A stretch of 64,000 nt of DNA from Planctomycetota bacterium (lineage in GTDB: Bacteria; Planctomycetota; Phycisphaerae; WQYP01), in the NCBI GenBank assembly GCA_021818445.1, contig JAKAEB010000011.1, positions 2,269 to 66,268 on the forward strand. The letters run 5' to 3'. This document shows, piece by piece, positions 34,142-64,000 of the stretch. Below the pieces are notes generated by a model that worked only from the letters and a program-made list of their open reading frames with translations, ran no database searches and had not been told where the DNA came from. Numbering within the stretch: position 1 is the first letter of the stretch; each line of letters opens with the position of its first letter. The translations under genes and the position numbers were made by a program.

Positions 34142-34277
34142 CGCATTTGACTGCGAGGGTTAAATGTTGATACTTATGGGTGTGGCGTTGCCTTTGGCGG
34201 CCACGGGGATGGCGCTGGATTGCAGCGGCATGGGGGTAGGAGATACGGCAGGGGAAGAGATGCAGCGCGAAATTGAT

Positions 34278-34351
<74 letters not shown>

Positions 34352-34367
34352 ATTCCTTACATGACAG

Positions 34368-34397: not shown

Positions 34398-34650
34398 GTG
34401 GACCCAGATGGATGCGGCACCTGGAAAGGTAACGTTTCGGTCATACGCCTACCCACGGTGGGTTGCCCCTTAAAAAAAGTACATCAAATGGCAAGCGTCA
34501 GGTTACGCCGCCTTTTTTTACGCCGTCCACAAATTTTGATGGTACCCCCCGATTTGCGATCAGCCAAGTGGCTCGGCCTCCTCCAGCATGGACGACAGGT
34601 AGCCGCGTTTGCGTCCGCCAGGGGTGTGGTTAGCATACGCCTTGGTATTT

Positions 34651-36627
34651 ATGAGCCGTCAATACTACCACGACTCGATCAGCAGGTTCCTGGAGCGGGA
34701 AAGCGACCATATTCTCGGCGTCCTTTGTGCCGCCAGCGAGTTCCCCATCACCCAGACCCAGCGTGACGCCTGGCTGGCGGAAATTGAGGTTATCAAAACG
34801 GCGTTGACGGCTTTCCTTGGTCGCGGCAGCGTTTACCTTGAATATTCCGTTCCACGCCTTGGACGGCGGATCGACGTCGTGCTTTTAATTGACCACGTAT
34901 TGTTCATTCTGGAATTCAAGATAGGGGCGGACACCTTCTCGGCGGCAGCGATCGAACAAGTGTGCGATTACGCCTTGGACATGAAAAATTTCCATGAACC
35001 ATCCCATGGCATTGCCATTGTCCCGGTTCTGGTGGCAACCAACGCGGCCGGCGGTAATCACCAGGTGCTTCCGCACGGCGGCGACGGACTTTACCAACCG
35101 ATATGCAGTACGCCTGATCTCTTGCAAAAAACCATCAATGATTGCCTTTCGACAATCGCCGGTGAGCGCATCGCCCCCGAAACATGGGAGGCCGGTAGGT
35201 ACAATCCGACGCCGACAATTGTCGAAGCCGCACAGGCGCTTTACGCCAACCACGGAGTGGCGGAAATTTCCCGCAGCGACGCGGCCGCGACAAACCTAAG
35301 GGCAACCAGCGATCGCATAGCCGCAATTATTAACGACGCGATGGAGCAACGCCGAAAGGCGATTTGCCTCCTGACCGGCGTGCCGGGTGCCGGCAAGACG
35401 TTGGTAGGGCTGAATATAGCGGCGGCGCATACGAGCGTTCAGATGGATTTGCACAGCGTTTACCTTTCCGGCAATGGGCCTCTGGTTGCCGTCCTGCGTG
35501 AGGCCTTGGCCCGGGATAAGGTAAGGCGCGAGCGAGAACTTCAGAGAACCGTTCGCATTTCGGCGGCGCGCAGCGAGGTGAAGCAGTTTATACAAAACGT
35601 TCATCACTTCAGGGACGAATGCCTGCGCGACACGCGGCCCCCGATAGAACATGTAGCGCTATTTGACGAGGCGCAGCGTGCTTGGAATCTGGAACAAACG
35701 AAGCGGTTTATGCGAGAAAAGCGGAAGCAGACGAAATTTGAGCTTTCCGAGCCTGAATTTTTGATATCCTGCATGGACCGCCACCAAGATTGGGCGGCCG
35801 TCGTTTGCCTGATTGGCGGTGGGCAGGAGATAAACACTGGTGAGGCTGGCGTTGGAGAATGGGTTAACGCGCTGCTGGGCCGCTTCATAAACTGGGACGT
35901 CTACATGTCGCCGCGGTTGTGCGATGCCGATTACCTACCGCGCGACATGGCGGAGCAGCTTGTGCAACGACCCGGTGCGTACATGCACGAGGACCTGCAT
36001 CTTTCAGTCTCGATGCGTTCGTTTCGGGCGGAAAATCTCTCACTGTTGGTTCAGCAACTGCTGGATTTGGATGAGGGCGGGGCGCGTGCTACGCACGACT
36101 CCCTCGCAAGCCGTTACCCCATACGCATATCTCGCGACCTCGCCGCAGCCAAGCAATGGATTCGACGGCAGGCACGGGGTACCGAGCGGTACGGTTTGCT
36201 TGCGTCCTCGCGCGCCCTGCGCTTAAAACCCGAGGCTGTGGATATTCGCACCGCCGTCGACCCGGTGCAGTGGTTCCTAAACGATCGCAACGATACACGG
36301 TCGAGCTACTATTTGGAGGACGCAGCGACCGAGTATAAAACCCAAGGGCTGGAACTGGATTGGGCCTGCGTGGCATGGGACGCAGACTTCCGGCGCAGTG
36401 GCAACCATTGGGAATCTTGGTCGTTCAGGGGCGAAAAATGGGCTCGCATCCGCAAACCGGAGCGGCAGCGTTACCAGAAAAACGCCTACCGGGTACTGCT
36501 TACCCGCGCAAGGCAAGGGATGGTGATCGTTGTGCCGCGGGGCAACCCGGATGACCACACCCGGCTGCCATCATATTACGACCCGATCTATGAATACCTC
36601 AGGCGCATTGGAATTACGGAAATATAG
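34651..36627 (+). CDS. DUF2075-type protein: N-terminal PD-(D/E)xK-like nuclease module fused to P-loop ATPase / SF1-like helicase core (candidate single-gene antiphage defence protein)
   Basis: RIDVVLLIDHVLFILEFK (D...ExK nuclease-like), Walker A LLTGVPGAGKTLVG, Walker B ALFDEAQRAW, C-terminal LLTRARQGMVIVV (helicase motif VI-like). The start was taken at MSRQYY; the ORF begins at 34609. Confidence 0.65.
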   Translation: MSRQYYHDSISRFLERESDHILGVLCAASEFPITQTQRDAWLAEIEVIKTALTAFLGRGSVYLEYSVPRLGRRIDVVLLIDHVLFILEFKIGADTFSAAAIEQVCDYALDMKNFHEPSHGIAIVPVLVATNAAGGNHQVLPHGGDGLYQPICSTPDLLQKTINDCLSTIAGERIAPETWEAGRYNPTPTIVEAAQALYANHGVAEISRSDAAATNLRATSDRIAAIINDAMEQRRKAICLLTGVPGAGKTLVGLNIAAAHTSVQMDLHSVYLSGNGPLVAVLREALARDKVRRERELQRTVRISAARSEVKQFIQNVHHFRDECLRDTRPPIEHVALFDEAQRAWNLEQTKRFMREKRKQTKFELSEPEFLISCMDRHQDWAAVVCLIGGGQEINTGEAGVGEWVNALLGRFINWDVYMSPRLCDADYLPRDMAEQLVQRPGAYMHEDLHLSVSMRSFRAENLSLLVQQLLDLDEGGARATHDSLASRYPIRISRDLAAAKQWIRRQARGTERYGLLASSRALRLKPEAVDIRTAVDPVQWFLNDRNDTRSSYYLEDAATEYKTQGLELDWACVAWDADFRRSGNHWESWSFRGEKWARIRKPERQRYQKNAYRVLLTRARQGMVIVVPRGNPDDHTRLPSYYDPIYEYLRRIGITEI

Positions 36628-36923
36628 TGCCCCTTGGTTTGTTGCGGGTGGGTGCCAGGGCGTTTGTATCCGCAAGTCCGGTGGTGCGTGCAAAAGAAGC
36701 GTGTGAGTCTGCCAAAGCGCAAAGTGCTAACGGTTTTACGCGATATATCTCTGCTGCGGCCAGGAGCGGGCGGTTTAGCCGCGGTTAAACGAAAATGGCG
36801 AAAGTTGGTGTAAAATCATATATTAATGTTGAGTGCTGCTTCGGAGGTTTGCATGTCGCGGCAACCGCGCAGCGCGGATGCAGGTAGGTTTCGCAGCACC
36901 CGCCGAATGTCTGCCAAATTAAG

Positions 36924-37652
36924 ATGGAGCCGACAGTGATTCACATCGCTACCGAATTGGCCACGTTGGTACCGGCCGCCCCGTCACCAGTGCCCGATAC
37001 CCACTATATCCATTACCTTACGAACCAAGTTGAGTGGTTCTACGGGGAAATGTTCATCGGCATGACGGTTCTTTATGCCTTCGTCGCCGCAGTTTTTGGC
37101 TATTTCATACCTCGGCACAACCTCAAAGCACTGCACGAAAGGATTGACACTGATGCGGCATCAATCAAACAAGTTATCGAGCAACAGCAAGCGGCCATGG
37201 AGAGGGTCCGGCAGGAAACACAGCGGGAGCTTGGGAAAATCCACCACTTCGCCGGTGGTACGCTGCTCCTCGCCAGGGGCCTAAACATCTTTTTGAGCGG
37301 ACTTCTTCCCTCGCGGCCCGTCCAGGGTGGCGTGGATGAGGGAGGCAAAAAAAAGGGCACCATTATTCTGTCCGCCATCGAGCTGCTCGGGGCGTGCCAC
37401 CTGTTTTTTCTTGCCGAGGATTTTCAGATTTCCCTTAATACGATGTCGGAAGCGATCACCGCTTTGCGAGCGTTCGGGGACCCCCCGTCGTTCCTGCTGG
37501 ACCAAAGGCTCCGCAACAGCATCCGCCAAGTACAGGAGGACTTCGCCAAGCTGCGGGCGGACCACGCCGATGTCGTGGAAGCTGCGCAGGCGGTCAAGGA
37601 GCACCTGAGGGATCCGCACCTTCAATGGTTTTTGGACCTGCCGGCCCAATGA
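36924..37652 (+). CDS. hypothetical membrane protein (242 aa) with coiled-coil segment
   Basis: TM helix MFIGMTVLYAFVAAVFGYFI, a second hydrophobic segment ILSAIELLGACHLFFLA, and a helical Gln/Glu-rich region; co-directional with and downstream of the DUF2075 gene. Confidence 0.4.
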   Translation: MEPTVIHIATELATLVPAAPSPVPDTHYIHYLTNQVEWFYGEMFIGMTVLYAFVAAVFGYFIPRHNLKALHERIDTDAASIKQVIEQQQAAMERVRQETQRELGKIHHFAGGTLLLARGLNIFLSGLLPSRPVQGGVDEGGKKKGTIILSAIELLGACHLFFLAEDFQISLNTMSEAITALRAFGDPPSFLLDQRLRNSIRQVQEDFAKLRADHADVVEAAQAVKEHLRDPHLQWFLDLPAQ

Positions 37653-37751
37653 TTCGCTTGGCGTTTTTGCTCGCCGCTGATGGATGCCGCTCTGGCGGGC
37701 CTGCGGCCCCGTTGCGGCGTTACCCCGGTTGCCAATATCAGAATAGAGTTA

Positions 37752-37940
37752 GTGGCCGCTGCCGGGCGGTCATGATGATGGGCACCTGCGGGCAGCCGCG
37801 TCACTCGGCGGTTTTAATGGATGCGGTATTGGCGGCCTTAGGCCACGTGCAGCAGACGGTTGATGTCTTCGCCATTCTTCCAGCGCTTATAAATCATTAA
37901 TGATTGCTCAATAACTGGAAAGGCATATTCACCGGGCATA
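37752..37940. repeat. direct repeat L (about 190 bp, about 93% identical to 41224..41412); carries a duplicated ppa 3' end and terminator, a candidate attL
   Basis: Nucleotide alignment to the region spanning the ppa stop codon: about 85 nt of downstream hairpin sequence plus about 105 nt encoding the last 33 codons of Ppa. Confidence 0.7.
37838..37939 (-). pseudogene. ppa: inorganic pyrophosphatase C-terminal fragment (33 codons plus stop), a remnant duplicate of the ppa 3' end
   Basis: Minus-strand translation MPGEYAFPVIEQSLMIYKRWKNGEDINRLLHVA* matches the C-terminus of intact ppa at 41310..41412; no upstream ppa sequence. Confidence 0.6.
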
Positions 37941-37963
37941 CACCACCCTACCCCCCGCGGGCG

Positions 37964-38794
37964 TCATGGGGCCACAAAAACCAGCCGGCCGTTGCGCAGC
38001 CTTGGCTGCGGCGGGTACGAGGCGCTGGCGCTTATTTGCAGGTAGGTGACCGTCTCATACTCGTGTGAGGGGGGCTTGGTTCCCTGTGGCAGGTCCGAAA
38101 GAATCGGGTTATTCGTCGGATTGCCAAGGAGCAAGGGCATCTGTGTGAGCATGCTGCCGCCCCAGGATTTGTCAAAAACGGGAATCGCCTGCACCTTTCC
38201 CTGCCACGCCGCCGGGTAAAGTCCCCGCATTGCCCGAGTGTTCAAGGCGAAATTGCCGTCACTGGAAAAAATGGCCGATCCATCCTTATTAGGCTTGGCC
38301 CGATACGGGCACCTCATGAATGTTTCCACGGTGCCGCGGTTGGATCGCCAGCGTGCATCAGTCAGGATGGACGGATAGCGGCGGCTTGGTGCCACAATCG
38401 TGATGATCGCGCCGCTTCTAACCTGAGTGCTGCTGAGGTTTAGCACAGAGATCGGGCCCTTGGAGGCATGGGAATTCCAAGTTTCCTGCCAGACAGTCAT
38501 GAAGCATTTGCGATGTGGTTTCATGGTGATCCGGAAGCACGCCACGTGGGACGCGATTCCCATCGTTTTAAGAACCTGCTCGGCCGCAGGCGGTAGCGGG
38601 TGCCACCAGAGGCGGTAGCCCGGCCCGGTCATAACCAACTTGTCGCCGGGATCCGGCCGATTTGCCCAAACACAGAGGCCGGCCACGGATGCTATCACCA
38701 CCACCACTGCCGTGATGCCGACGGCGGAACCGACGGCAACCAGCTTTTTTCTTTGGTGAAGATGCGTTAGAAAGCCGACCATTTGGCACCCCAA
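37964..38794 (-). CDS. hypothetical membrane-anchored protein (276 aa) within the R-M island
   Basis: N-terminal TM helix (VAVGSAVGITAVVVVIASVAGLCVW); no recognisable domain; lies between the left direct repeat and the R-M genes. Confidence 0.4.
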   Translation of the reverse strand: MGCQMVGFLTHLHQRKKLVAVGSAVGITAVVVVIASVAGLCVWANRPDPGDKLVMTGPGYRLWWHPLPPAAEQVLKTMGIASHVACFRITMKPHRKCFMTVWQETWNSHASKGPISVLNLSSTQVRSGAIITIVAPSRRYPSILTDARWRSNRGTVETFMRCPYRAKPNKDGSAIFSSDGNFALNTRAMRGLYPAAWQGKVQAIPVFDKSWGGSMLTQMPLLLGNPTNNPILSDLPQGTKPPSHEYETVTYLQISASASYPPQPRLRNGRLVFVAP

Positions 38795-38990
38795 GAGACA
38801 TTGCTACCATTCATCGGGATGGTAACGCGCTGGGGGAATGCTGCCAAATTGATGGGATGGACGCTATGCCTCGCGGGAGGAGTCTGACGCTTAATAAACA
38901 ACCGTTGCCCATCCGTGAGGCCATTGAGGTAGGAATTTCTTTTCACACGATAATTATATTTTATTAAATTATCAGACAGCCGCTGAATGG

Positions 38991-39941
38991 CTACCCTGAA
39001 TCTTCCCTGCTTTTAATCTGCAAGCCGGCGGCCCCGGCGGAGGGGAGCCAACTACGCGAATACTGCCTGAACAGACGGGAGAGTTGTTCGCGGACACCCT
39101 GCTCTTGAAAACGCCCCATCTCGGTAATGTTCTGCCCCACGAACGATTCGATGTCGACCACCGCAATGCGGCCCGCCCTGACCCCAAATTTTTTATCGAT
39201 CTCCGCCTGCCAAAGCGCCCTGGCAGATTGGCGCGTCAGGAACCACACTTCCAGGCGAGTGTCCGAGATTATGGTCGCGAGTTGGTCCATGTGAGCCCTG
39301 TCCGGCCGCTCCGCTATCGTTACCTCGATTGCCGTGTTGCCGACGCGGAAATCCGCCAGGTTTGTTCCGCTCGGCGTATTAACGTTTTTGGGAGTGACGC
39401 ACCGCTCCCCGAACCTCAGTTGCAGCTTTGCCCCAACGAGATACTCGGCGACGTCCTTTGCGCGTCGTTTGCTCTGGGCCTGATCGAGTAAATCTGCTAT
39501 GACAGCCACGGCTGTGCCCTTGTCGTACCGTACGATCAATGGCGCGCTTTCGCCAATTTGTGCCAGGCGAGCCGACGCCTGGGTCTGCATATGGGTGAGT
39601 AACTCCACATTTGCCGCGAGTTGGTCTTCGTGGAAACCGGCGCTACGAAGCCAATCGAACAGGGCTTCTGCCCACGCGTGCAGGTTGCTGGAGCGCCTTC
39701 CCATTTCCTGCACTGGTGAACTTACTTTGAATCGGGAAATTGCCGTTTCAACATAGCGGTTGTGGTCGAGCAATTGCATGCCACTTTTTGCCAAGTGCTG
39801 CTTCAAAACCAGCTTCGGGGTTTCGCGCAACCGTTCCAGGAGGCCAAGAAGTGCCAGCAGCCTCGCCGGTACATCGCGTGTACCCGTGGCCATGTATTGG
39901 TCCATCCAGCCTTGGAAGGTATCGCCGCCGGCCTCACGCAT
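38991..39941 (-). CDS. putative Type II restriction endonuclease partnered with the adjacent C5-methyltransferase
   Basis: 316-aa ORF whose start overlaps the methyltransferase stop by 8 nt (39934..39941), typical of R-M operons. No recognisable catalytic motif seen by eye. Confidence 0.45.
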   Translation of the reverse strand: MREAGGDTFQGWMDQYMATGTRDVPARLLALLGLLERLRETPKLVLKQHLAKSGMQLLDHNRYVETAISRFKVSSPVQEMGRRSSNLHAWAEALFDWLRSAGFHEDQLAANVELLTHMQTQASARLAQIGESAPLIVRYDKGTAVAVIADLLDQAQSKRRAKDVAEYLVGAKLQLRFGERCVTPKNVNTPSGTNLADFRVGNTAIEVTIAERPDRAHMDQLATIISDTRLEVWFLTRQSARALWQAEIDKKFGVRAGRIAVVDIESFVGQNITEMGRFQEQGVREQLSRLFRQYSRSWLPSAGAAGLQIKSREDSG

Positions 39942-41130
39942 CGCATTTAATTCCTGTGGGCTTTTCGCAATCGGAAAGTTGATACGCCAGCGGTGTTAAA
40001 TAATTGTCGACAATCCATTCAACCGCAGGTATGCAAACTGCATCGCCGAAACCAAAGAGAGCCTGGTTTAATGGAATACCATCGACGCGATAACAATCGG
40101 GGGCACCTTGCAGACGGGCACACTCGCGTGCGGTCAGCAGCCGCACCTGGTATCGGCCATTGCCAGCTTTGAATAGTATCTGACGACCGCTACCGCCGCG
40201 CGGCGTCCTGAGACAGCCTGCAATTCCGTCGGTACGCAGTTCAGCCATGCTCCTCCCATTTCTGACACGGCGAAATACCGTTGCATACTGGCAAGTATCC
40301 TGCTTTAACATTTTTTCGGCCAGCGTCAGGTGGCGCTCGCTGAATTGCCCAAACAGGTATTTCGCCCGGTCCCGTGGCCACCAGTGCGGATCATCGGGAG
40401 GAAGGTCTTCTATAACGTCGCGCAATTGGGACGACGGTCTTGGTAATTCCGGCAGTGTCCTGATCTTCCAGCGGATATTCCGGTGAAGGTTAATAAATGC
40501 GGCAAGCCTGGTGGGTCTCGCGTCGCTGGCCATGGCAAACTGGCTGCCGGTATGGCAATCATCGACACTGGCGACCACAAACAAGCGGGGGCGGCTCTGC
40601 GGCGTCCAATGAACGGCATTGAGAATGAAAGCGTCCACCGTATAGCCAAGTTTATTAAGGGCCAGCAGAGCTGCCTCAAAGTCCCTCCCATCGTGTGACT
40701 GAAGAAAGCCGACCACATTCTCAAGCATGACGATTGGCGGGCGCCGGTGCCCCAGATTCCCAAGAATACGTATAAGGCCCCAGAATGCAGACGACTGCAA
40801 ACCGTCGAGTCCACTTCGCGACCCGGCAATCGATAAATCATTACACGGGAACGACGCGGTGAATAAATCACATTGGGGTAGATTGCTTACATCAATTTCG
40901 TGGATATCGCCGAGGTGGAAATCCGCTCGGCCGAAGTTCAGTTCATAAATTTCAAGTTTGTCGGGATCGATATCGTTTGCAAAAGCCACCCGCCAGCCAC
41001 AATGTTCAAGCGCGACGCGCACCAGTCCAATCCCCGCGAAGAACTCGGCGGCGACGAAGCCTCGCGCGGATCGCGAGGGTTTATCCCCACGATACGCCAG
41101 AATGCTCCTGCTGGTATCTAAAAGACTCAT
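39934..41130 (-). CDS. dcm: DNA (cytosine-5)-methyltransferase
   Basis: FAGIGLVRVALEHCGWRVAFANDID (motif I), DLFTASFPCNDLSIAG (PC catalytic motif IV), ENV motif VI and a C-terminal target-recognition region. Confidence 0.85.
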   Translation of the reverse strand: MSLLDTSRSILAYRGDKPSRSARGFVAAEFFAGIGLVRVALEHCGWRVAFANDIDPDKLEIYELNFGRADFHLGDIHEIDVSNLPQCDLFTASFPCNDLSIAGSRSGLDGLQSSAFWGLIRILGNLGHRRPPIVMLENVVGFLQSHDGRDFEAALLALNKLGYTVDAFILNAVHWTPQSRPRLFVVASVDDCHTGSQFAMASDARPTRLAAFINLHRNIRWKIRTLPELPRPSSQLRDVIEDLPPDDPHWWPRDRAKYLFGQFSERHLTLAEKMLKQDTCQYATVFRRVRNGRSMAELRTDGIAGCLRTPRGGSGRQILFKAGNGRYQVRLLTARECARLQGAPDCYRVDGIPLNQALFGFGDAVCIPAVEWIVDNYLTPLAYQLSDCEKPTGIKCDA

Positions 41131-41223
41131 CGCACCAGATTGTAACCGAGAGACCGTTTTTATCCCCAGCCCGGCATCAATTCGGCTTTCGCCAAGTGTG
41201 TGAAGTATGCCACCCGCTGTTTC

Positions 41224-41412
41224 GTGGCCGCTGCCGGGCGGTCATGATGATGGGCATCTGCGGGCAGCCGCGTCACTCCGCCGTTTTTATGGGTGCGGTA
41301 TTGGCGGCCTTAAGCCACGTGTAGCAGGCGATTGATGTCTTCGCCATTCTTCCAGCGCTTATAAATCATTAATGATTGCTCAATAACTGGAAAAGCATAT
41401 TCACCAGGCAGC
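41224..41412. repeat. direct repeat R (about 190 bp), overlapping the authentic ppa 3' end and its terminator hairpin; candidate attR
   Basis: See repeat L at 37752..37940. Confidence 0.7.
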
Positions 41413-41912
41413 ACATCATCTACCACCACACGCTTGTGTTCCAACGATTTGTAATCTTCAAAAAATCGCTTCAACACGGAAAGTTTGTGGGCGGGCAACT
41501 GATGCACATCGGAATAGCTGTTGTATTCCGGATCATTCACATGGACGGAAATGATCTTATGGTCAATTTCATTCTGGTCTTTCATGGTCATCAGGCCGAT
41601 GGCGCGGGCTTCAACCATAGTCAGCGGATGCACGGGTGCGGCACCAAGCACCAATACGTCCAGCGGGTCGCCATCGTCGGCCATCGTTTGCGGAATAAAG
41701 CCATAATTGGCTGGGTAATAAACGGCGGAATGCAGTACACGGTCCAGCTTAAGCAGACCGGTGGATTTATCGAGTTCATATTTATTGGATGAGCCGAGCG
41801 GAATTTCGACAATGGCGTTGAAAACCGTCGGCAGCATGCCGCTGCCCGGTTCCACGTTGTGCCACGGGCTGAACCAGGGTGTCGAAGGAAACGGTCCGAG
41901 TTTGCGCCCCAT
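41310..41912 (-). CDS. ppa: inorganic pyrophosphatase
   Basis: DGDPLDVLVLG and family-I PPase signature residues; 200 aa. Confidence 0.9.
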   Translation of the reverse strand: MGRKLGPFPSTPWFSPWHNVEPGSGMLPTVFNAIVEIPLGSSNKYELDKSTGLLKLDRVLHSAVYYPANYGFIPQTMADDGDPLDVLVLGAAPVHPLTMVEARAIGLMTMKDQNEIDHKIISVHVNDPEYNSYSDVHQLPAHKLSVLKRFFEDYKSLEHKRVVVDDVLPGEYAFPVIEQSLMIYKRWKNGEDINRLLHVA

Positions 41913-56886: not shown

Positions 56887-58038
56887 TTAAGACTTTGTCT
56901 CTGATGCTGATGCGTGGTCACCAACTACGTAGTCGCGCATCTTTTCAAAGAAATTTTTACGGGCTGGTAAAACCGCCTCATCTTCAACCTGTGCGTATTG
57001 CCGCAGCAATTGTTCCTGCGTCTTACCCAGTTTGCGAGGAATTTCCACCACAATTCGGGCGACGATATCACCCGTTCGGCCGCCATGGACGTCCGGCAGA
57101 CCGAGCCCCTTGGCGCGGATCAACTCGCCGGGTTGGGTGCCGGGGGGCACGTGCAAAGTGGTTTTTCCAGTCAGGGTGGGCAGTTCCACCTCTGCGCCGA
57201 GGGCCGCCTGCACCATGCTGATGGGCAGATCCAGATAGAGATGATTTTTATCGCGCTGGAAGAATGAATGTTCCGCTACGCGAACATAGACGTGCAGATC
57301 GCCATGCGGTCCACCTTCATTGCCAGGCTCCCCTTCGCCGCGCACTCGCACCGCCTGCCCATCGTGAATGCCAGCGGGGATTTTGACCGATATTTTACGG
57401 TTCAGCAGTGTTTGGCCGCTACCATGGCAGTCGGGGCATGGCTTTTCAATGGTCGCCCCCTGGCCATTACACTTAGGGCAATCGGTCACCATCGAAAATA
57501 TGCCACCAAAGCCGCGCTGCACCACTTGCCCCCGTCCACCGCAAGTGGTGCATATTTTTTTCTTCGTGCCGGGTTTAGCACCCGATCCTTTGCAGGTTTC
57601 GCAGTGGTCATGGCGGGTAAACTCGACATCTTTCTCCACGCCGGACTGCACTTCCTTAAGCGTGATGGAAACCTGCGTTTCGAGGTCGTAGCCACGACTG
57701 GGCCCCTCGCGCCGTCCCCCACCCCCGCCGGCTACACCGCTGAAAATGTCGTTGAACATCGAGAAGATGTCGGTGTACTGCATGTGCGAATAATCATGCA
57801 CGGCAGCACCCTGAAGCCCATCATGGCCGTATTGATCGTAGCGTGATCGTTTTTCAGGATCTGACAGCACCTCGTAGGCTTCAGCGCACTCTTTAAAACG
57901 CACTTCAGCTTCAGCGTTGCCCGGATTACGATCGGGGTGGTGTGCGATGGCGGCTTTGCGATACGCACTTTTTATTTCATCCACGCTGGCACTGCGGGAG
58001 ACCTGCAGGATTTCGTAGTAATCTCGTTTGGTTGGCAT
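56887..58038 (-). CDS. dnaJ: molecular chaperone DnaJ
   Basis: J-domain ([33 protein letters not shown]), G/F region, four CxxCxGxG zinc-finger repeats and C-terminal domains. Start at MPTKRDYY (ATG 58036-58038). Confidence 0.9.
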
Positions 58039-62269: not shown

Positions 62270-64000
62270 TCAAACGACCATGGGAAGTTTTTCGGGGCAG
62301 CGCAGCACCAGGCCGGGACGCCAGCGCAGAGATTCACCCGTCAGCACCGCACCGGGAAAACGACCGAAAAATGCCTGCAGGGCCATCTGCGCCTCGAGCT
62401 TGGCAAGCATGGCCCCCAGGCAGTAATGGATGCCAAAGCCAAAGGCGATATGCCTGTTCTCTGCGCGATCCACCTTAAATTGATCCGGGTCGGCAAACGC
62501 GGCCGGATCACGATTGGCGGCCCCGATGCCCGCGAGGATCAAATCGCCCCGGTGCACTCTCTGCCCGGCGACCTCCACATCCGTCATGGCTACGCGCCCC
62601 GTCCATTGAACGGGACTCTCAAACCGCAATATCTCTTCCACCGCCATGGCCATCGCCTTGCCATCCTGCATGGCAATGGCCCGCTGGGCAGGATGGCGAA
62701 CCAATAATAAAATACCATTGGTAATAAGGCTGGTGGTCGTCTCATGCCCCGCCATCAACAGCAGCATGCAATTGGCGATAAATTCCTCCTGAGGCAGATC
62801 GGCGGCATCCCCGTCCAGCAGTGCACCCAGCATCCCTTCATTGCTGCCGCGGGAGAGTTTCAGTTTCAGGTAATCACTGAATTCGGCGTAAGCTACGTCG
62901 GCCTGCGCCAGATCCTGCAAGGTGGAATGAATGCCAATCGCCGGTACCATGCGGTCGGACCAGGCCGACAGCACGGGGGCATCCGCATCCGGCAAGCCCA
63001 TCATGCGTGTTATGACGCTTGTAGGCAGCGGTCCGGAAAACATCTCGATCAGGTCAAACGTCCGCCGCGATGCCATTGCGTCAAGAAGGGATTGGATGAT
63101 TTCACCCATTTGGCGACGAATTAAATCCATTGAAACGGAATTAAATACACGCATAAACGCCGCTCGAATGCGGGTGTGGCGAGGAGGATCGGCAAAAAGC
63201 ATCATCGCCGGTAAACCGCGTTGACACTCAGGGGCACCGAGTTGCTTCCGCATGGCCGGTGGGAATGAATCAGATAGAAATGGGCCACGGCCAAATCGGG
63301 TATCTTTGATGACAAACTGCACATCGGCATAATTAACCGCGACAAACGCGGGCAACAGTGGATCAAGGGCAAAGGGACGCGCTTGCCGCAGGAACCGATA
63401 CATGCGAAATGGATCGGTGCGATAACCCGGATGAAGCAAACTTTTGCGAGCCAGCACCTTCCAGGGTATCCCGGCAAGAGCGGCAGCCGTTTTGAAGGAT
63501 GGAATCCGCGGCATCACGGGCCGAAAGGCACTGGCGGCCTCGAGGCCCAAAGCCCATCGCCGGCGCAAATTTGACTCCCTTTGCCATTTTCGCCAGCCAC
63601 GTTTAACTACGTCGAAAGTCAGCCCGGCTTCCTGCATGAGCCGCCCCACCGGCGAATTGCTTTCCGCCAGCGCCATTAGTAGATGCGAGGTTGAAATGTA
63701 TGATCGCCCCAACGATTGTGACAGTTTGCGGGTATGCGCGAGCAAATCCATCGTGGCGCGCGAAAATTTCAATTCGGCATTTGGGCCCGGCGGTTCATCC
63801 GATCTTGTCGCCGACATAAGGCGGCTTCGCAACGTGGAGATATCCACCCCGCTCTGTGCGATGATGTATTGTGCGCCACTGCGTTGGGAATCAATCAGCG
63901 CCAGCAGGAGATGATACGGCTCAACCAATGCCTGCGGGGCGGCAAATTTGGCGGCATCCTGCAAGATGTGACGGGTACGTGGCGGAAGTACGTCCCACAA
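62270..64000 (-). CDS. cytochrome P450 with N-terminal Clp_N (double Clp R-domain repeat) fusion; 5' partial (continues beyond window end)
   Basis: The C-terminal about 400 aa has the P450 I-helix AGHETTTSL, an ExxR-type K-helix motif (EEILRFESP) and the heme-ligand loop FGFGIHYCLGA. The N-terminal about 150 aa shows two Clp_N-like repeats (YHLLLALIDSQRSGAQYIIAQSGVDISTLRSRL; ISTSHLLMALAESNSPVGRLMQEAGLTFDVVKRG). One continuous ORF with no stop between the domains. Confidence 0.7.
   Translation of the reverse strand: MWDVLPPRTRHILQDAAKFAAPQALVEPYHLLLALIDSQRSGAQYIIAQSGVDISTLRSRLMSATRSDEPPGPNAELKFSRATMDLLAHTRKLSQSLGRSYISTSHLLMALAESNSPVGRLMQEAGLTFDVVKRGWRKWQRESNLRRRWALGLEAASAFRPVMPRIPSFKTAAALAGIPWKVLARKSLLHPGYRTDPFRMYRFLRQARPFALDPLLPAFVAVNYADVQFVIKDTRFGRGPFLSDSFPPAMRKQLGAPECQRGLPAMMLFADPPRHTRIRAAFMRVFNSVSMDLIRRQMGEIIQSLLDAMASRRTFDLIEMFSGPLPTSVITRMMGLPDADAPVLSAWSDRMVPAIGIHSTLQDLAQADVAYAEFSDYLKLKLSRGSNEGMLGALLDGDAADLPQEEFIANCMLLLMAGHETTTSLITNGILLLVRHPAQRAIAMQDGKAMAMAVEEILRFESPVQWTGRVAMTDVEVAGQRVHRGDLILAGIGAANRDPAAFADPDQFKVDRAENRHIAFGFGIHYCLGAMLAKLEAQMALQAFFGRFPGAVLTGESLRWRPGLVLRCPEKLPMVV

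Follow-up and report, generated by a model that had tools for sequence, protein, structure and literature searches.

A Type II restriction-modification (R-M) operon located downstream of ppa, the inorganic pyrophosphatase gene of a Phycisphaerae bacterium (Planctomycetota), lies between two long direct copies of the 3' end of that gene, and the locus constitutes a further case of R-M insertion with long target duplication, in Planctomycetota. The DNA concerned is a stretch of 64,000 nucleotides from contig JAKAEB010000011.1 (assembly GCA_021818445.1), referred to throughout as the window, in whose coordinates positions are given unless another contig is named. The explanation favoured, in which our confidence is evenly balanced, is an integrase-independent, R-M-linked insertion with long target duplication, for which a Campbell-type homologous crossover with DNA from a related lineage would be the most likely route.

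Duplication of the ppa 3' End

A repeat search conducted between positions 36000 and 43000 returned a single two-copy family of ungapped direct repeats, each of 190 nt, with a start-to-start spacing of 3472 and enclosing an insert of 3282 bp (37939-41220). The copy joined to the intact ppa gene is termed T' and the orphan copy T (Table 1). Each consists of the last 98 coding nt of ppa (~33 codons), the stop codon and 89 nt of downstream sequence. The initial annotation had placed the copies at 41224..41412 and 37752..37940, a location that proved correct to within 2-3 nt, with the downstream part amounting to 89 nt rather than about 85. Comparison of the two copies established identity at 178/190 positions (93.7%), the 12 mismatches being scattered along the full 190 nt; the longest stretch free of mismatches measured 62 bp (37860-37921). 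A 60-nt core of the repeat occurred exactly twice in the 64-kb window, with no occurrence expected or seen in 100 shuffles. When the gaps and flanks were compared, no homology was detected past either edge of the repeat: both edges were sharp, and the homology of T' to the other copy ended abruptly at 41220.

Contigs 99.8-100% identical to the window were recovered from six independent assemblies (ENA, Logan, NCBI), and because these cross every junction and retain the same 12 mismatches, the duplication is not a mis-assembly. The duplicated ppa end around the R-M island, as originally described, is therefore real. By way of contrast, the earlier description of the segment downstream of the ppa stop codon as a hairpin region found no support, since shuffling the 89 nt left their folding unimpaired (z -0.4 and 0.0) and they gave no match in Rfam.

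Divergence of the Two Copies

Half of the mismatches (6/12) fall in the coding part, and all six are synonymous third-position changes. The variants specific to T' were 41313 A, 41322 T, 41328 G, 41331 A, 41394 A and 41406 A. Had the orphan arisen by in-situ duplication and drifted neutrally thereafter, ~40% of changes would be expected to be synonymous, and the probability of observing 6/6 would be ~0.004. Polarisation of the changes between the copies with four relatives indicated that both have two derived states in common, and that private derived changes number three in the working copy and one in the orphan. The density of private changes in the working copy (5/81 sites) was somewhat higher than in the body of ppa (10/377), a weak hint that the working end may be the imported one. 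Since the coding differences are exclusively synonymous and the orphan is the less changed copy, both would appear to have evolved in working ppa genes of two close lineages and to have been joined later, which hints that one copy arrived with the cassette.

Composite Nature of the Insert

The initial assignment of the island's content (a membrane-anchored hypothetical protein, a restriction endonuclease and a C5-cytosine methyltransferase) held up when examined by profile matching. The methyltransferase gene, M, encodes a full catalytic domain, the match to PF00145 spanning profile positions 4-320 of 324, and scored 162 bits against TIGR00675 (cutoff 100.65). The adjoining gene, R, encodes a candidate endonuclease with a restriction-endonuclease fold, for which a sequence search of solved structures returned nothing. 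M and R overlap by 8 nt, which suggests an operon. The Type II C5 R-M operon is intact, with sequence-specific cleavage blocked by the cognate methylation as its predicted activity.

Homologous M-R(DUF4928)-Vsr cassettes are present in Planctomycetota and Verrucomicrobiota, with protein identities of 67-72% for M and 56-66% for R, and these have their gene order and tight linkage in common with the cassette in the window; on this comparison the R-M operon is horizontally mobile. In most of the contexts examined (contigs L103-L108) the homologous M-R pair is followed by vsr, a very-short-patch repair gene; neither a vsr gene nor a remnant of one was found beside R in the window (38795-38990). 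A weak vsr match at 58033 was rejected as spurious, as it lies antisense to dnaJ. The cassette in the window is flanked by long repeats, whereas the homologous cassettes in the other contexts examined had neither ppa-like sequence nor long flanking direct repeats. The 90-nt leader of M showed no similarity to the regions upstream of distant M homologs, and no conserved leader was apparent among the cassettes.

As a separate observation on base composition, GGCGCC showed a strong deficit, with 6 occurrences in the window where a maximal-order Markov model predicts ~30 (z -4.3), and CTAG and GCGC were also low. The GGCGCC deficit may reflect a past or present R-M specificity, and no test ties it to the system in the window.

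The remaining gene of the insert, hyp276, gave no match in Pfam, NCBIfam or PADLOC, and its structure model was unusable (pLDDT 33). A single homolog was found among 5.8 billion proteins, encoded on a 2.4-kb contig designated L116 (ENA ERZ27237454, k141_661460). Five homologs were found for hyp242, the gene located just beyond the orphan repeat, so few that the two families count as very rare; source annotation, where given, was Phycisphaerae for both families, and both proteins possess an N-terminal hydrophobic segment. On L116 (1-1302) the hyp276 homolog is arranged head-to-head with a hyp242 homolog, their start codons lying 257 nt apart, and in the window the two genes are arranged tail-to-tail with the orphan repeat between them. 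The L116 intergenic region is correspondingly split in the window: the upstream region of hyp242 (36874-36811) aligns to L116 intergenic positions 236-292, and the promoter of hyp276 (38850-38823) aligns to L116 422-449, with 0/200 shuffles reaching the score in each case. Because of this split and the tail-to-tail orientation, the interval from ~36810 to 38850 is a circular permutation of an L116-like block. No remnants of hyp242 or hyp276 were detected in the gaps around the repeats. On these alignments hyp276 is a chromosomal gene whose natural partner sits just outside the repeats and, since it accompanies a mobile R-M operon, the material between the repeats is composite.

A ~20-nt motif on the minus strand, CCATC(TT)AATTTGGCAG(A)CATTC, was noted both at the -35 region of the hyp276 promoter (38835-38855) and just before the start codon of hyp242 (36903-36925); the site upstream of hyp242 falls inside a 91-nt stretch missing from L116.

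Organisation of the Locus

Read along the minus strand, the locus comprises ppa, T', the 90-nt leader, M, R, a 196-nt spacer with a promoter, hyp276, a 25-nt joint and the orphan T, beyond which lie 96 nt, the tail of hyp242, the PDC-S41 helicase and tRNA-Met (Table 1).

Table 1. Features of the ppa-linked R-M locus in window coordinates, with the evidence for each.
Feature	Position	Strand	Evidence or remark
ppa (inorganic pyrophosphatase), intact	41310..41912	-	PF00719 1.5e-53; protein 97% identical to L013 and L109
Repeat T', joined to intact ppa	41221..41410	.	98 coding nt + stop + 89 nt; 3 derived synonymous changes absent from orphan
Leader, T' to M start codon, 90 nt; left edge of insert	41131..41220	-	Homology to other copy stops at 41220
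C5-cytosine DNA methyltransferase (M)	39934..41130	-	PF00145 2.2e-48, TIGR00675 2e-47, PADLOC MTase_II 3.9e-111
Restriction endonuclease candidate (R)	38991..39941	-	DUF4928; PADLOC REase_II 6.5e-10
Sigma-70-like promoter of hyp276	38819..38847	-	TTGGCA, 17 nt, TACCAT; conserved in L116
hyp276, membrane-anchored protein, separate transcription unit	37964..38794	-	Homolog P0140, 60% identity
Novel joint, 25 nt, hyp276 stop codon to orphan ppa fragment	37939..37963	-	L116 homology ends ~5 nt past stop
Orphan repeat T: ppa 3' fragment + 89 nt	37749..37938	.	Translates to same 32 residues as intact copy
hyp242, membrane/coiled-coil protein, outside repeats	36924..37652	+	Divergent partner of hyp276 in L116
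Schlafen-like helicase, PADLOC candidate defence gene PDC-S41	34609..36627	+	PF09848 1.8e-77; PDC-S41 2.7e-278
tRNA-Met bordering defence genes	34277..34352	+	ARAGORN; Rfam tRNA 63 bits

PDC-S41, a Schlafen-like DUF2075 helicase located directly after tRNA-Met, marks the far boundary of the variable slot and, together with the R-M system, makes up a small defence slot (tRNA-Met/PDC-S41 to ppa) in an otherwise housekeeping region: the large open reading frames scanned in the rest of the window were housekeeping genes. The GC content of the island did not set it apart from its surroundings. The 25-nt joint showed no significant similarity to the ppa sequence upstream of the repeat.

At its junction with hyp276 the orphan gains an ATG in frame with ppa (37838-37941, minus strand), from which the orphan could encode a 33-residue peptide, MPGEYAFPVIEQSLMIYKRWKNGEDINRLLHVA, identical to the pyrophosphatase C-terminus and preceded by a G-rich stretch. 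In one homologous contig from a metagenome-assembled genome, L003 (GCA_021816165.1, JAKAYZ010000390.1), 115 extra nt at 1219-1333 and a 33-nt overlap (window 38906-38938) lie between R and hyp276. The two halves of this anomaly match the termini of two other contigs, L012 and L100, and the extra sequence was rejected as a real variant, being probably a joining artefact of that genome assembly. Remote from the island, an open reading frame that runs off the end of the window (62270-64000, minus strand) gave Pfam matches to Clp_N and cytochrome P450 in one reading frame, and may represent either an unusual fusion or a read-through of two genes.

The ppa Neighbourhood in Related Genomes

The nearest syntenic relative was L109 (Logan SRR32752777; 82-87% nucleotide identity), which has a PEP-CTERM protein, a DUF1559 protein, PGM and ppa in common with the window, and in which the same helicase lies 489 nt past the ppa stop codon and convergent to ppa. 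L109 has one ppa end, and contains neither M, R, hyp276, hyp242 nor the orphan repeat. Its DNA downstream of ppa gave a collinear match to the flank of the orphan that was not significant, as 22/200 shuffles reached the score. The intervening 489 nt (L109 8254-8742) contain a consensus promoter (TTGACA-17-TATAAT) with a short inverted repeat on its flanks, and a short frame with a ~20-codon stub bearing VVDIFAGPGGLGEGF, which matches motif I of C5 methyltransferases. All PADLOC matches of the stub (7/7) involved the N-terminal part of models for cytosine or Type II methyltransferases (best E 0.0023), and it had no match in Pfam or the PDB. The stub may represent the 5' remnant of a different, deleted C5 methyltransferase R-M system, and its presence in the same slot faintly suggests that R-M cassettes turn over after ppa, in what would be a recurrent R-M slot.

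Elsewhere, ppa is followed by an amino-acid ABC transporter in L110-L115, and by a membrane protein, MarR and PEPCK in L013, in which synteny with the window ends at the ppa stop codon. Across the contigs compared, the region downstream of ppa is variable within the clade. In L111 (14400-18860), a block encoding HTH_17 (excisionase-like) and AAA_25 proteins takes the place of the genes after the ppa-linked ABC transporter, an arrangement suggestive of another kind of mobile element nearby.

The empty site predicted in the initial annotation, with ppa directly next to the gene at 36924..37652 (hyp242), was not found. A scan of genome contigs with ppa identified L013 as the only syntenic species; the ppa 90% cluster supplied L109 and the L110 group, in which ppa never adjoins hyp242; a metagenome scan with hyp242 found nothing, and one with ppa revealed no empty site among the matches listed (85% identity). 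An empty site, or the product of deletion between the repeats, would present a junction reading from ppa-unique sequence (41411-41435) through one repeat to CTCTATTCTGATATTGGCAACC, while a circle or tandem amplification would read from the hyp276 tail through the repeat to ACAGCGGGTGGCATAC.

Origin of the Duplication

In a Campbell-type 'insertion-duplication', a single crossover between the chromosome and a circular DNA that carries a chromosomal fragment places the insert between two copies of the fragment with one sharp joint, and any differences between the copies are inherited from the donor and recipient alleles. The topology of the locus (two fragment copies, one novel joint, a natural point of divergence lying 89 nt beyond the stop codon, and apparently inherited differences) has the signature of such a single crossover. 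The following history would account for it. The ancestral order would have been ppa, a convergent hyp242, and then a divergent hyp276. In a donor lineage the R-M cassette would have replaced hyp242, and in the recipient lineage the side carrying the PDC-S41 helicase would have replaced hyp276. A segment from a closely related donor, comprising the ppa 3' end, the R-M operon and hyp276, would then have circularised and undergone a single homologous crossover with the resident ppa 3' end. The resultant insert (41220 down to 37939, minus strand), consisting of the R-M operon and the hyp276 unit, would sit 89 nt downstream of ppa and, as the duplication spans the ppa stop codon, would leave ppa intact, with the displaced end persisting as an orphan beside hyp242. 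The circular permutation of hyp242 and hyp276, with the orphan between the gene tails, is predicted by a single-crossover insertion, as it is by a tandem duplication. Once in place, the repeats would permit the island to be deleted or amplified by homologous recombination. Its R-M genes, however lost, would be expected to be retained through post-segregational killing, as is established for Type II R-M systems, which selects against their loss.

It is also possible, if rather doubtful, that R-M cassettes could spread more generally among related strains with a piece of a neighbouring conserved gene as a portable homology arm for a single RecA-type crossover, a suggestion prompted by the fact that the coding differences between the copies are only synonymous, apparently pre-existing polymorphisms. 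If true, such an arm would supply a concrete mechanism for the class of insertions with long target duplication.

Several considerations weigh against an imported single crossover. Neither an exact empty site (ppa, 89 nt, hyp242) nor a donor arrangement (ppa, R-M, hyp276) was present in any collection searched, and the same-species contigs were all clonal, with no presence/absence polymorphism, circle junction or amplification among them. L109 differs from the window downstream of ppa, its sequence not aligning significantly to the 89-nt part, and is without hyp242 as well as the island. No fewer than three events are required by the proposed history. Six sites underlie the synonymous-only pattern, which later allelic replacement or gene conversion of ppa could also have produced.

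The main rival, which we regard as unlikely, is a tandem duplication in situ, whereby a block comprising the ppa 3' end, hyp242, the intergenic region and hyp276 was doubled head-to-tail within one genome; hyp242 later gave way to the R-M operon in the first copy, and hyp276 to the helicase side in the second, so that just 190 bp can still be recognised as repeated. This would account equally well for the permutation of hyp242 and hyp276 relative to L116 and for the novel joint between the hyp276 tail and ppa, and the putative stub of a different methyltransferase in L109 would be an instance of cassette replacement in this slot. However, two independent replacements would be needed, both ending in the same intergenic region, the lost halves have left no detectable remnants, and the helicase is already convergent to ppa in L109. 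Moreover, an untranslated orphan that had decayed in situ would be unlikely to have changed less than the working gene and to show 6/6 synonymous differences. The tandem duplication thus fits the synonymous-only pattern and the missing remnants less well than does the imported crossover.

The initial annotation had interpreted the repeats as attL and attR of a site-specific element, according to which a small island bringing its own replacement for the gene end integrated at the ppa 3' end, and might be degenerate or be mobilised in trans by an integrase encoded elsewhere. A repeat that spans the 3' end of a conserved gene and restores that gene is indeed the usual pattern of integrative elements (PMC7192596), and the greater number of private changes in the working copy than in the ppa body fits, albeit weakly, with an imported gene end. 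Nevertheless, this origin is improbable. As the initial annotation had noted, no integrase lies between the repeats, and no integrase, transposase, resolvase or phage family was identified in the island, its neighbours or the large open reading frames scanned across the 64-kb window. The cargo includes hyp276, the chromosomal partner of a gene outside the repeats, so that the insert is composite; homologous R-M cassettes in the other contexts examined are without such an att sequence or repeats; and the repeat had no exact match in viral contigs. Furthermore, the homology extends 89 nt past the stop codon, more than restoration of the gene requires, with mismatches throughout. Nothing specific was found in the literature on ppa as an attachment site.

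That the duplicated ppa end is a mis-join of strain variants during metagenome assembly is scarcely credible: the source is metagenomic and contig L003 holds a probable join artefact elsewhere in the island, but every junction is crossed at 100% identity by several short contigs and by a pair of long ones, of 94.9 kb and 82.8 kb, that come from different samples, and the 12 mismatches allow assemblers operating at k=141 to tell the copies apart.

Comparison with Known Systems

Insertion of R-M genes with long target duplication was reportedly described by Nobusato et al. in 2000, and the mechanism of the class has been open since that time. A clear case is now available from Planctomycetota, in which an R-M system is flanked by a long duplication of the end of a housekeeping gene without a recombinase. 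For annotation, it follows that an orphan gene end beside an R-M island is not automatically an att site. The divergence of the copies, together with the permuted hyp242/hyp276 pair, provides a testable clue for distinguishing an imported single crossover from a local duplication. The space downstream of ppa may be a recurrent landing slot for defence genes in this Phycisphaerae clade.

When compared with Campbell-type insertion, the topology of the window is exactly as predicted; it differs in being a natural event that would have involved a 190-bp homeologous arm, and in that the circle and the donor were not observed here.

By the definition of Mageeney et al. 2020 (PMC7192596), integrative genetic elements have attL and attR and contain an integrase. 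Like these, the locus has direct repeats that contain, and derive from, the 3' end of the target gene, an intact recombinant gene and a displaced orphan end. Unlike these, the island has no integrase or other mobility gene, none of its three open reading frames having a recombinase domain; no attP form or discrete, recurring foreign unit was found; its cargo is partly native and chromosomal; and its repeats are much longer than needed and imperfect throughout.

A closer correspondence exists with the class defined by Furuta, Abe & Kobayashi 2010 (PMC2853133) by R and M genes in an insert of <20 kb, a duplication of >30 bp, the absence of mobility genes, and a repeated sequence that is single at the empty site in a related genome. 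According to the same paper, such repeats often span a start or stop codon and leave the target gene intact, R-M genes flanked by long direct repeats can be amplified, and how insertions of this class arise is unknown. Set against this definition, the window has both R and M in an insert of 3282 bp, a duplication of 190 bp and no mobile-element genes; for the empty site the correspondence is partial, as L109 has a single ppa end and no island but different downstream DNA. The likeness to the published examples extends to R and M genes flanked by long direct repeats of local chromosomal sequence without a transposase or integrase, and to a repeat that spans the stop codon of a target gene that survives, the insert in the window being small (3.3 kb). 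The differences are that, at 190 bp and 93.7% identity, the repeat in the window exceeds in length and in divergence the 46-47-bp examples with 44/46 to 47/47 identity among those listed there, that the insert also holds a gene other than R and M, with its natural partner immediately beyond the repeats, that the exact empty site was not found, and that the host belongs to the Phycisphaerae (Planctomycetota). As the integrase-free landing of such cassettes is already known, the locus is a fairly ordinary example of its class.

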